DNA of 15,774 nucleotides from a bacterium (GTDB lineage Bacteria; Patescibacteriota; Patescibacteriia; Patescibacteriales; GWC2-42-12). The notes under the pieces are model-generated. The model made no database searches and had not been told where the DNA came from. It saw only the letters and a program-made list of their open reading frames with translations. The stretch covers positions 1 to 15,774 of the forward strand of contig JAZDFM010000026.1 in NCBI GenBank assembly GCA_043807825.1. Direction: 5' to 3'. Position numbers and translations under genes: made by a program. This document shows, piece by piece, positions 12,202 to 15,475 of the stretch (position 1 is the stretch's first letter; every line of letters begins with the position of its first letter).

Positions 12202-12897
12202 ATGTTAGTACAAAAATTCGATAATTTTCTACAATCAGTTGACCTAAAATCCTATCGGGATAAATATAGACCTATTAAAATTGTGGAAATGGATTTACCA
12301 AAAGAGATCCAAGCTATAAACTTACTCTACAAAATATATTGGAACAAGAAAGAGTTCTTGAGTTTTGAAAAATTTTATGAAGAATACCTAAAAGAGTATG
12401 GGGCTGATATTAAAAAATTTCAAGAAAAGACTGGGATGTGCGAGAAGTGTTTTAGTAAAGGATTGCCCGCGAGAATTTATAGAACATGGGCAAGCATTAT
12501 TACTCAGATACATGCTGGCTATGTAGCGGAGTCGGTTTTCGGTGTTGGTACAGTTTCAATGTCAGGGGAGCTTGATCATCAAGGGGCTGATTTTCAAATT
12601 CTGTATAAAGGAAAAATTCTAAATTATCAAGTAAAAAAGAAATCATTCAGTGGTGAGGTAAGACGCGGTAAAGGCGGAGTTAAAACTAAAATAGCTGGCG
12701 AATTTATTGATATTAATTACGAAGTTCCAAGTAGTGATTACTTCGAAAATCCAAAGAAAAAAGACGGTGAGTATAAACTTCCGTACAAAAGATTTCAAGA
12801 TAACAAGGAATTAAAAAGATTTTCAAATGGTTTTGTAGTTTTTACTTCTTACGCTTTTGAACAAAAGAAAAAAGAGATTGATGTAAACTTAAAATAA
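12202..12897 (+). CDS. candidate type II restriction endonuclease (PD-(D/E)xK-like), otherwise hypothetical
   Basis: 231 aa. Placement follows the usual C-then-R operon order, convergent with a methyltransferase. ELDHQGADFQILYKGKILNYQVKKK can be read as E...D-x13-QxK on alternating hydrophobic strands. I recognise no specific REase family, so the functional call rests mainly on context. Confidence 0.45.
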   Translation: MLVQKFDNFLQSVDLKSYRDKYRPIKIVEMDLPKEIQAINLLYKIYWNKKEFLSFEKFYEEYLKEYGADIKKFQEKTGMCEKCFSKGLPARIYRTWASIITQIHAGYVAESVFGVGTVSMSGELDHQGADFQILYKGKILNYQVKKKSFSGEVRRGKGGVKTKIAGEFIDINYEVPSSDYFENPKKKDGEYKLPYKRFQDNKELKRFSNGFVVFTSYAFEQKKKEIDVNLK

Positions 12898-14415
12898 TTT
12901 AGGAATAACTGTTACGGAAGAAATAGTTTTTTCGGCAATTTTTATATAATCAGGATTAATTTCAAACCCGATATAATTTTGACTCAACTCTTTTGCGGCT
13001 GCACATTCAGCCCCTGTTCCGACAAAGGGAACCAAAACCACTCCATCTTTTTTAGGCATGGCTGATTTTATTAATTTTCTGCAAATTTCTAATGGCTTTT
13101 GTGTTGGGTGTTTAACTATCTCGTGATCAGCGTGTTTTTTTAGTTCTCTTGGCTCAAAAACATTTCTTCCACAGGTATTACAGATAAACCATCTTTCATT
13201 CATACCGGCTCCTCCGGCTAATGCTGGTATTTTTATTACATCTCTTGGCAAGGCACCACCCTCGTGTGCCTTATAAACAGTTTCTTGACCGTTTGTACTG
13301 TATCGTCCAATTGTTCCTTTGCGTATTTTCCCAGCCGCTCCATTTAAAAAACCCTCAGTGTACGGCTCTCTTACTTCGTCACGATTAAAAACTGGGCTAT
13401 TTTTCCAAGCACAAATTATAGATTCATGGCTTCGTTGCCAAAAATTTAGAGAAGCAACATTTTTGTTTGTGTAATGCCAAATAAGCCACCTTTTACTTAT
13501 CGGTATTTCAACCGAAAGATAAGCAAGAATTTCGCTAAAACCATAAATAAACATTGTGCCGGTTGGTTTTAAGACTCTAATAGATTCATCTATCCAACTT
13601 TTTGACCAACGAATGTACTCGTTCATTTCTCGTTTATCCATGTTATTACCAAAATCTTTGCCGATATTATATGGTGGATCAATTATAATAACATCACAAC
13701 ATTCATCTGGTAATTTTCTTAATTCTTCAACTGCGTCATTTAAAATAATTTGATTGAGTGGTAATTTATTATTTCGTTTAATATTTTTTGATGTAATCAA
13801 CTCTTCTACAAAATTATTTTCATCGTTTTTTATTACATCAATTACAATACCCTGTATTGTTAGCGGAGTTTGTTTGGAAATAATTATGGGATCCATTGTT
13901 CTGTTGGCTGGCTGAAGTCTAATATGTCCTCTTTCCTTGTAAAACTTTTTTAATGTGGTTTCATAATTATCAATCAACGCTACAATCTTTTGTCCATTTT
14001 CGGCAGTATCTTGTTGTTTAACTAACACGACATCACCATCATTAATATTCTCTTCGATCATGCTGTTACCAATAACTCTTAATGCATAAAAATTGCCGTG
14101 GCTCGGTAATTTGCTCTGTGGTACAGCAACGATTTCTTTTTCTTTAATTGCTTCGATTGGTTGCCCGGCTGCAATATTCCCCATAAGCGGAATATTTATC
14201 ATTTTTTCACTCTCAAAAACAGAAATTGCTCTTGGCTGGTTATCTTCTTTTCTTAAAAAACCTTTTTCTTGAAGTTTTTTAATATGAAAATGGGCAGTAG
14301 AAACAGAAGCTATTTTTAGATGTTTCTTAATTTCTTCAAGAGAAGGGGCATATTTATGCTTGGAATAATATTGTTTTATAAAATCCAAGACATCTTTTTG
14401 TTTTTTAGTAAGCAT
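12889..14415 (-). CDS. LexA-like repressor/autoprotease fused to a beta-class (DPPY) N6-adenine/N4-cytosine DNA methyltransferase
   Basis: I prefer the ATG at 14415 (MLTKKQKDVLDFI, a typical LexA N-terminus) over the TTG at 14430. LexA part: wHTH, then Ala83-Gly84 in IAAGQPIEA, Ser118 in GNSM, Lys156 in TLKKF. MTase part: IIIDPPYN (13669-13680), HPTQKP, and a C-terminal VPFVGTGAE...GFEINPDY (motif IV before motif I, which defines the beta class). The stop overlaps the convergent ORF by 9 nt. Confidence 0.85.
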   Translation of the reverse strand: MLTKKQKDVLDFIKQYYSKHKYAPSLEEIKKHLKIASVSTAHFHIKKLQEKGFLRKEDNQPRAISVFESEKMINIPLMGNIAAGQPIEAIKEKEIVAVPQSKLPSHGNFYALRVIGNSMIEENINDGDVVLVKQQDTAENGQKIVALIDNYETTLKKFYKERGHIRLQPANRTMDPIIISKQTPLTIQGIVIDVIKNDENNFVEELITSKNIKRNNKLPLNQIILNDAVEELRKLPDECCDVIIIDPPYNIGKDFGNNMDKREMNEYIRWSKSWIDESIRVLKPTGTMFIYGFSEILAYLSVEIPISKRWLIWHYTNKNVASLNFWQRSHESIICAWKNSPVFNRDEVREPYTEGFLNGAAGKIRKGTIGRYSTNGQETVYKAHEGGALPRDVIKIPALAGGAGMNERWFICNTCGRNVFEPRELKKHADHEIVKHPTQKPLEICRKLIKSAMPKKDGVVLVPFVGTGAECAAAKELSQNYIGFEINPDYIKIAEKTISSVTVIPKLF

Positions 14416-14419
14416 ATTA

Positions 14420-14481
14420 TTGACAGACAATTTTTGTTAGGTGTATAATAGTATTATAGAAAATAAATAGAAAACTTACAA
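14420..14481. promoter_or_regulatory. overlapping divergent promoter pair with palindromic and phased-repeat candidate operator
   Basis: Plus strand: TTGACA (14420-14425), 18-nt spacer, TATAAT (14444-14449). Minus strand: TTGTAA (complement of 14476-14481), 17-nt spacer, TATAAT (complement of 14453-14458). The two -10 boxes form the palindrome TATAATAgTATTATA (14444-14458). ATAGAAAA occurs twice, 11 bp apart (14456-14463 and 14467-14474). Confidence 0.5.
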
Positions 14482-14503
14482 TAGCCCACTTATCCACAAC
14501 TGC

Positions 14504-15475
14504 ATGCCAAAATCATTTTTTTCAGAAAAAATAGATTTAATAATGAAATCTAGGGAGGCCATGCTTTCTGCTGTTCAGATTTATAATAATCCACTGATTT
14601 TATTTAAAACAGAATCTTTTATTGTCCTTTCTTTAATTGCATGGACTTATCTTTTGCATTCGCACTACAGAGCGATCGGGGTTGATTACAGATATTTTGA
14701 AAAAAATGGTTCCCGAAAAAGATTTATTAAAAATCCTGACGGAAGTATAAAATATTGGGATCTTAAGGAATGTATTTCAAAAGAATTTTGTCCGCTAGAT
14801 AAAGATACGAATAATAATCTTTCATTTTTAATTGGTTTAAGAAATCAAATAGAACATCGTAAGGCAAGCGGATTAGATTCTTGTCTCTCAGCTCGCTATC
14901 AGGCCCGTGCTTTAAATTTGAATTTTTATCTTAAAAAATTGCATGGTGAAAAATACGGACTTGATAATAACTTGGCATTAAGCTTGCAGTTTTCAGAATT
15001 AGACGATTCGCAATCAAAGATATTAAAAGATAAAGAATCCTTAATACCTCAAAATATTATTTCTTATCTTGCTGATTTTGATAGTAAGTTATCGGAAAGC
15101 GAAATAAAAAGCGATCGTTTTGCATACCGTCTTTTATTTACTAAGGTTTTAGCAAAAAGGAAGGGGCAAGCCGATCGCGTTATTGAGTTCATAGATCCAA
15201 AGTCTGATTTAGCAAAGAATATTTCTAAAGAATATTGGATCAAAGAAGAAACAGAAAAGCCAAAATTTTCAGCCACTCAGACAATTCAAAAGGTAAGAGA
15301 AGCAGGATATAAAAATTTTAGTATGCATCAGCACACGCAATTTTGGCAAAAACATGATGGAAAAAATCCAAATAAGGGATTCGGTTCAATGATTGTCAAA
15401 ACTTGGTGTTGGTATCAAAATTGGGCGGATTATATTATTAGCGAATTAAACAAGATAAAAAAAATAATTATTTAA
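14504..15475 (+). CDS. DUF3644-like protein with HEPN-type Rx4H motif (candidate RNase / abortive-infection effector)
   Basis: 323 aa. The N-terminal AVQIYNNP...ESFIVLSLIAWTYLLHS resembles the DUF3644 pattern as I remember it. LIGLRNQIEHR (R113 at 14840-14842, H118 at 14855-14857) matches the HEPN R-N-x-x-x-H signature seen in AbiD/AbiF-type proteins. Confidence 0.55.
   Translation: MPKSFFSEKIDLIMKSREAMLSAVQIYNNPLILFKTESFIVLSLIAWTYLLHSHYRAIGVDYRYFEKNGSRKRFIKNPDGSIKYWDLKECISKEFCPLDKDTNNNLSFLIGLRNQIEHRKASGLDSCLSARYQARALNLNFYLKKLHGEKYGLDNNLALSLQFSELDDSQSKILKDKESLIPQNIISYLADFDSKLSESEIKSDRFAYRLLFTKVLAKRKGQADRVIEFIDPKSDLAKNISKEYWIKEETEKPKFSATQTIQKVREAGYKNFSMHQHTQFWQKHDGKNPNKGFGSMIVKTWCWYQNWADYIISELNKIKKIII

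Follow-up and report, generated by a model that had tools for sequence, protein, structure and literature searches.

How is transcription shared between two neighbouring genes when the 88 bp that separate them hold two consensus promoters pointing at each other, and which of the repeated motifs in that gap would be the site of a repressor? These questions are raised by positions 14416-14503 of a stretch of Patescibacteria DNA of 15,774 nucleotides, which we call the window. The control region is the exact gap between the ATG of a gene for a LexA-methyltransferase fusion (LexA-MTase; 14415, minus strand) and the ATG of a DUF3644 gene (14504, plus strand). According to Pfam, the fusion consists of a LexA wHTH, an S24 self-cleaving peptidase and an N6/N4 DNA methyltransferase, in this order. 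A TaqI-family nuclease and a small C-type HTH protein are encoded downstream of the methylase and convergent with it, and a tRNA-Ser precedes the whole island. A Shine-Dalgarno sequence is absent from both genes flanking the control region. The DUF3644 ORF has three in-frame ATGs (14504, 14543 and 14561), with GGGAGG located 2 nt before the third only, and the start at 14504 is favoured because the Pfam match begins at residue 12.

We consider it reasonably probable that the gap controls transcription in both directions for a mobile cassette of Patescibacteria, a TaqI-family restriction-modification (R-M) system whose methylase carries a complete N-terminal LexA; this judgement covers the whole of the explanation developed below. 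Relatives of LexA-MTase form a very large family (>7000 proteins at E <= 0.001), and the best 120 of them, with 71-96% identity, are almost all from Patescibacteria. We collected 51 homologous loci from genomes and 79 from metagenomes, and upstream regions were usable for 112 fused loci, 87 of them distinct. The convergent TaqI-like nuclease is kept in most homologous loci and the C protein in only some. Action of the C protein at the control region is unlikely, since many loci without a C gene keep the control region. No TCGA (TaqI-type) site, through which control could be methylation-sensitive, was present within 14416-14503.

A second copy of the cassette is present in the same assembly (contig C24:2366-5849), with a control region identical to that of the window. 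Identity between the two copies is mosaic (C protein 65%, nuclease 83%, LexA-MTase 96% and DUF3644 98%), and the C24 copy may be a genuine paralogue that recombination has shaped, or else belong to a second strain in the bin.

Two predicted promoters facing each other and the neighbouring gene

A string check recovered, at its coordinates, every feature that a preliminary description of the region had listed. The genes and the boxes of the minus-strand promoter (P_M), directed at the LexA-MTase gene, and of the plus-strand promoter (P_div), directed at the DUF3644 gene, are as follows.

12889..14415, minus strand: LexA-MTase gene, 508 aa; Pfam PF01726 (residues 2-63), PF00717 and PF01555
14504..15475, plus strand: DUF3644 gene, 323 aa; Pfam PF12358, E = 6e-52
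14420..14425, plus strand: P_div -35 box TTGACA, inside the P_M leader and 4 nt from the LexA-MTase ATG
14444..14449, plus strand: P_div -10 box TATAAT, predicted start near 14456
14453..14458, minus strand: P_M -10 box TATAAT, predicted start near 14446; invariant in close relatives
14476..14481, minus strand: P_M -35 box TTGTAA, the TTG of which is kept in relatives

P_div has an 18-nt spacer and matches the consensus at 12/12 positions; P_M, read from 14481-14476 to 14458-14453, has a 17-nt spacer and matches at 10/12. With the usual 7-nt distance from -10 box to start, the two predicted transcripts cross by ~11 nt, in agreement with the about 10 nt given earlier. The proposal that P_M and P_div face each other in such a way that their joint occupancy would be precluded is supported by the consensus geometry, which is present and conserved.

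Perfect 12/12 promoters number 16 in the whole 826-kb genome against 1.15 expected from composition (14-fold), so that the sigma-70 consensus is meaningful in this host. Two of the 16 are the two cassette copies, and the expectation by chance for a 12/12 promoter in the 3.9-kb island is 0.012. Facing promoter-like pairs, defined as two promoters of at least 10/12 each with -10 boxes 0-6 bp apart, occur only four times genome-wide, and two of these are the control region and its C24 copy. Contig C14 (C14:24100-24260) has another facing -10 pair, 3 bp apart, with matches of 12/12 and 10/12 and flanked by three AACCGTGAAAA copies; it looks like a different repressor-controlled two-way promoter.

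Homologous loci fall into a long-leader type, to which the window belongs, with ~37 nt between the P_M -10 box and the ATG containing the reverse promoter, and a leaderless type with no room for a reverse promoter. In seven distinct leaderless loci the end of the -10 hexamer and the ATG are 6-7 nt apart, a leaderless-mRNA geometry that supports the P_M hexamer as a working -10 box. The leaderless variants, all devoid of a reverse promoter, are L006, L009, L025, L037, L195 and L199-L201.

Columns were compared among nine close relatives (83-97% protein identity). Neither the forward -10 box nor the reverse -35 box varied in any of its 6 columns, the reverse -10 box varied in 2 of 6, and the direct repeat proposed below as operator in 1 of 19. 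The reverse spacer varied in 11 of 18 columns, and the 3 nt between the -10 boxes in 2 of 3. Conserved hexamers with a drifting spacer are the pattern expected for a promoter under selection. The 3-bp gap between the -10 boxes was found in about 35/38 long-leader loci despite differing hexamers, a count in which 12 'gap 6' cases are read, following the promoter calls, as TATACT-ATA-AGTATA. The hexamer pairs of distant loci are TATAAT/ATTATA, TATACT/AGTATA and TATAAT/AGTATA.

A divergent ORF lies within 200 nt of 37/52 strong reverse promoters (>=10/12) as compared to 13/29 weak ones (odds ratio 3, p = 0.03, uncorrected), and support for the association of a strong reverse promoter with a divergent ORF is thus real but moderate. 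Elsewhere the divergent gene encodes a DUF4209 protein with an RNDFAHG motif, a small HEPN protein, a ClpP-like SDH protease, a SEC-C protein or a protein without family match, and in two loci it is a housekeeping gene. Sequence conservation stops around a TTATCCACA box within the gap. Since conservation ends there and the divergent gene varies, P_div would belong to the cassette and read into any neighbour; on this comparison of loci, the neighbouring gene is swappable cargo, often HEPN-like.

The same leader could be read in another way, with P_div unused, its boxes (TGTCAA and ATTATA on the methylase mRNA) serving translation or stability of that mRNA, and DUF3644 read otherwise or by read-through. 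Consistent with this, a divergent ORF of >=60 aa is missing from the 200 nt next to the strong reverse promoter in 15/52 loci, and the leader spacer in the wider set of loci is A-rich, partly conserved and devoid of a Shine-Dalgarno sequence, so that it could have a part in translating the methylase mRNA as well. This reading has to account, however, for a perfect match to a consensus that is enriched genome-wide, for hexamers that stay while the spacer drifts, and for the association with divergent ORFs. Moreover, no other promoter-like site was found between 14459 and 14503, and leaderless loci dispense with the leader altogether. We regard an unused P_div as improbable, and P_div as a promoter of the cassette is the reading followed here.

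A proposed repressor site in the methylase promoter

Three motifs in the gap are candidates for a repressor site.

14456..14474, minus strand: proposed LexA operator TTTTCTATTTATTTTCTAT, two 8-nt units in direct repeat with 11-bp phase
14444..14458, unstranded: palindrome TATAATAgTATTATA, here read as a by-product of the facing -10 hexamers and not as an operator
14427..14437, unstranded: ACAA-N3-TTGT dyad, located in the most variable stretch among close relatives, judged to be chance

The direct repeat ATAGAAAA (14456-14463 and 14467-14474) has the 11-bp phase and the position in the P_M spacer that were first reported for it. As TTTTCTAT-N3-TTTTCTAT it fills the spacer, overlaps the P_M -10 box by 3 nt and spans ~+1 to +19 of the P_div transcript. 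A search for a TTC-containing 7-mer repeated at 11-bp phase with <=1 mismatch was positive in 81/87 distinct fused regions, as against 0.5% of shuffled regions, and nearly all fused loci share a common plan of -35 box, spacer-filling direct repeat and -10 box. The unit shifts jointly in both copies of the repeat, being TTCTAT in 60 regions, TTCGGT in 13, TTCGGG in 3 and TTCTAG in 3. The stand-alone lexA of the host, on contig C45 (C45:4860-5566), has an equal layout with another unit, TTGACT-[TTCGTAttttgTTCGTG]-TATAAT, and tandem TTC units at 11-bp phase lie over the lexA promoter in 43/74 stand-alone Patescibacteria lexA loci. Since the promoter-operator plan is common to the fusion and to ordinary lexA, it is presumably shared by descent.

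The exact TTCTAT operator is present in the host genome solely in the two cassette copies. When a wider regulon of the fused LexA was looked for, the one-mismatch operator matches in the genome were without promoter context, bar one doubtful case. This is an operator-like string at C28:7994, TTCTCTgtttaTTCTATTATACAAT, which resembles the operator and -10 box of L012-type cassettes and may be a remnant or chance.

The repeat unit covaried with the recognition helix of the LexA domain. In the LexA-operator structure, Glu45 of the E. coli protein is among the residues that contact bases, and residue 43 of the LexA recognition helix aligns with it. Where the unit carries GGx (GGT/GGG), residue 43 was E, Q or D in 34/34 cases, and where it carries TAx (TAT/TAG), ~80 cases had F, V, T, A, L or H at this residue and none had E or Q, neither count being corrected for phylogeny. 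With TA(T/G) units it is Phe in the fusions and Val, Thr, Ala or Leu in the stand-alone proteins, and the covariation is seen within each of the two lineages, fused and stand-alone. The helix reads STAHFH in the fusion and ATIHAH in the host stand-alone LexA, and the unit is TTCTAT in the cassette and TTCGT(A/G) in the host LexA box. As the host LexA has a different helix as well as a different box, the cassette appears, on these comparisons, to carry a private repressor-operator pair. We observed this concerted change of operator and helix directly, and binding of the one to the other is predicted; the repeat covaries with the helix and touches the -10 box, so that co-location of the operator with P_M is probable. 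The preliminary description had named the LexA domain as the obvious candidate for the repressor of the control region, and it remains the probable one.

The LexA-MTase of locus L007 is 78% identical overall to that of the window and yet has a different LexA head and operator. When L007, L024 and L145 are compared with the window, the proteins are 74-78% identical, the LexA heads are quite different, and the unit is TTCGGG or TTCGGT; promoter and DNA-binding domain seem, from these sequences, to have been exchanged between cassettes as one block. Part of the covariation of helix and repeat could therefore be linkage rather than function, because the promoter and the DNA-binding domain are adjacent and movable as a module (promoter plus first 200 bp).

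The fusion also has the features of an SOS-type repressor, namely an Ala-Gly cleavage site and a Ser/Lys catalytic dyad, from which its cleavage is predicted. Ala83-Gly84, Ser118 and Lys156 are conserved in 85-86/87 fused homologues, and the damage-sensing part is thus under selection. In the host genome, the TTCGT-N6-TTCGT box was found only at lexA and at one doubtful site on contig C2, and no recognisable LexA-type direct repeat was seen upstream of recA on contig C5 (C5:1450-1712); on these grounds the host SOS regulon appears very small.

The operator had earlier been placed not in the repeat but in the 7+1+7 palindrome, to which one LexA dimer was thought to bind and so shut both promoters. 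The -10 hexamers are 3 bp apart and give the palindrome as described; it is without mismatch in the window as well as in the C24 copy and several close relatives, and a passage of PMC7739468 has most LexA proteins outside Patescibacteria binding palindromes. However, two opposite-strand consensus -10 hexamers 3 bp apart form a 6+3+6 palindrome by definition, and only the seventh pair is extra information; the 7+1+7 form is present at three places in the genome. The palindrome is not maintained in relatives that are 83-97% identical, its centre and seventh pair varying in L001 (TATAATACTACTATA), L138 (TATAATAGCATTATA) and L142 (TATAATATTGTTATA), and unlike hexamers are paired in many loci, e.g. 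TATAAT with AGTATA. Leaderless loci lack the palindrome and retain both the LexA domain and the repeat, and it is with the direct repeat, not with the palindrome, that the helix covaries. Besides, the same part of PMC7739468, with reference to Sanchez-Osuna 2017, counts Patescibacteria among the phyla in which LexA came to recognise a direct repeat in place of a palindrome. Being automatic from the facing -10 boxes, variable in relatives and absent from leaderless loci, the palindrome is read here as a by-product and not as a binding site, and a LexA operator at this position is very unlikely.

The likely repressor site is instead the direct repeat inside P_M, as far as the comparison of loci goes. 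The idea that one repressor shuts both genes survives in part, since one bound repressor would be positioned to affect both, with its site being other than the palindrome. The ACAA-N3-TTGT dyad is likewise present where it was reported, but is broken in L002, L003 and L004.

A DnaA-box consensus beside lexA promoters

The TTATCCACA box at which conservation stops was absent from the feature list of the preliminary description. It is a perfect match to the DnaA-box consensus quoted in PMC8203912.

14490..14498, plus strand: TTATCCACA, perfect DnaA-box consensus; centre at ~-48 from the P_M start, and +35 to +43 of the P_div transcript

TTATCCACA or a one-change variant lies within 160 nt upstream in 32/43 fused loci. 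Upstream of stand-alone lexA, TTATCCACA/TGTGGATAA was found within the same distance in 49/73 loci (L052-L124). In both sets the orientation of the box and its distance from the gene vary. The density of DnaA boxes upstream of lexA is 3.4-4.4 per kb, as compared to 0.03-0.08 per kb in the flanks, a 40- to 130-fold enrichment. Since the box also occurs in leaderless loci without a divergent gene, we assign it to the lexA-type promoter. In a complete Patescibacteria chromosome, 16 perfect boxes were counted against 1 for the reversed control, and the 12 other boxes in the host genome are a mix of intergenic and coding sites. The dnaA gene was not found in the 92%-complete assembly, and clustering of perfect boxes beside dnaA was not seen in the complete relative. 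The leader of the host lexA on C45 has a one-mismatch, DnaA-box-like string, TGTGTATAA.

By these counts, the pairing of the DnaA-box consensus with the lexA promoter is phylum-wide. These bacteria have very small genomes, and conservation of the box hints that their SOS repressor may be coupled to the initiation of replication, possibly through DnaA.

The proposed switch and known systems

The explanation that we favour, with moderate confidence, is a two-way region with self-repression through a direct repeat, co-repression of P_div, induction, and competition between the freed promoters. P_M has the same layout as the promoter of stand-alone lexA in the phylum, in which a direct repeat of 11-bp units fills the spacer and touches the -10 box. 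LexA-MTase, probably a dimer through its S24 domain, would bind TTTTCTAT-N3-TTTTCTAT and thereby block P_M. P_div is predicted to start at the operator edge, and repressor bound over +1 to +19 would most likely shut P_div too; as the operator lies between the -35 and -10 boxes of P_M and covers this part of P_div, bound protein should, by geometry, exclude polymerase from both promoters. Upon DNA damage, RecA filaments would trigger self-cleavage at Ala83-Gly84, and both promoters, once freed, would compete. The 37-nt P_M leader holds a consensus promoter on the opposite strand, and polymerase at either promoter would melt the shared ~15 bp, so that only one could be used at a time; simultaneous use would be excluded once the repressor is gone because both open complexes would melt 14444-14458. 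One output would be the methylase and the other a swappable gene, often of HEPN type. The DnaA-box consensus just upstream of the P_M -35 box probably adds a replication-linked signal.

A more far-reaching reading, which we consider rather improbable, is that a three-input switch of this kind operates in thousands of Patescibacteria defence cassettes, composed of a private cleavable LexA with an operator insulated from the LexA box of the host, a DnaA box as reporter of the state of replication, and mutually exclusive promoters. If so, each cell would commit after DNA damage either to more methylase or to the swappable, often HEPN-type, defence gene, and the DnaA box would place lexA itself under DnaA control across the whole phylum.

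In R-M systems the protection given by the methylase has to be matched to the danger posed by the nuclease, which is known to be achieved by C proteins, by methylation-sensitive promoters or by a small repressor fused to the methylase. The design described here, a complete SOS repressor fused to the methylase and having its own type of operator, is very common and apparently undescribed; the operator is placed where a second, exchangeable defence gene could also be gated through a head-on promoter. A complete LexA fused to an R-M methylase was not found in the searchable literature, and a 2025 review of R-M biology makes no mention of LexA. Methylases with a fused repressor and facing promoters were already known, as were direct-repeat LexA boxes; added here are an operator assignment together with covariation in the protein, the observation that the head-on geometry is conserved, a lesser standing for the palindrome, and the DnaA box. 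The pairs of operator unit and helix residue (TAT with Phe, Val or Thr; GG with Glu or Gln) offer a testable recognition code for direct-repeat LexA.

Ecl18kI, with head-on promoters under a repressor borne by the methylase, is a known system of this kind (PMC2760811, PMC3874152 and PMC12707154, for the Ecl18kI/SsoII type). There, as here, the methylase carries an N-terminal DNA-binding domain (PF01726 in our case) with an operator in its own promoter (proposed in our case), and this promoter is faced by another, located in or near the beginning of the methylase gene, such that polymerase can be bound at only one of the two (predicted in our case). The facing promoter of Ecl18kI drives the restriction gene, whereas here it would drive DUF3644, a swappable non-R-M gene, and the restriction gene, a TaqI-like nuclease, is convergent downstream and in some loci has its own C protein. 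The Ecl18kI operator is one long palindrome read by a plain HTH, in contrast to the direct repeat and the full cleavable LexA proposed here.

This precedent suggests a different logic for the window, in which the repressor would block P_M only, P_div would profit from the silence of P_M, and the cargo would be on at steady state and fall when LexA is cleaved and P_M resumes its competition. The Ecl18kI methylase, when bound, does not act directly on the facing promoter, which stays free, and transcription passes the operator complex; P_div is, moreover, the stronger of the two promoters by consensus match. However, the starts are 50 bp apart in Ecl18kI whereas they are predicted to cross here, and the operator covers a part of P_div that lies, by geometry, within the usual polymerase footprint. 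Constitutive expression of a HEPN-type cargo would also be costly. We consider this logic unlikely for the present locus and retain the co-repression of P_div that the geometry predicts.

Direct-repeat LexA boxes resemble the proposed operator in their tandem TTC units, 11-bp phase and position over the promoter of lexA itself, and differ from it in the unit, which is TTCTAT here as against TTCGT(A/G) for the host LexA. A direct repeat, GTTC-N7-GTTC, is also the LexA box of alphaproteobacteria. Recognition of direct repeats by LexA evolved several times independently, as stated in a passage of PMC7739468 that has Sanchez-Osuna 2017, on Patescibacteria, among its references, and direct-repeat boxes are also present in Balneolaeota (PMC7739468).

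The symmetric bidirectional promoters of E. coli and Salmonella (PMC12825309, PMC10268837) likewise have close -10 boxes on both strands, and the binding of one polymerase excludes the other. They are divergent, with non-overlapping starts typically 18 bp apart (~10-23 bp), whereas the order of hexamers is reversed here, so that the promoters face each other and the transcripts cross. With predicted starts that cross, owing to this order of hexamers, the region falls outside this class.

Joint control by DnaA and LexA is described for E. coli uvrB and recN (Wurihan 2018, as reported in PMC8203912). The likeness is that a DnaA box adjoins a LexA operator at one promoter, both being predicted in the present case. 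In contrast to uvrB and recN, the DnaA-box consensus is found here at the lexA-type promoter itself and, judging from the loci compared, throughout the phylum, with stand-alone as well as methylase-fused lexA.
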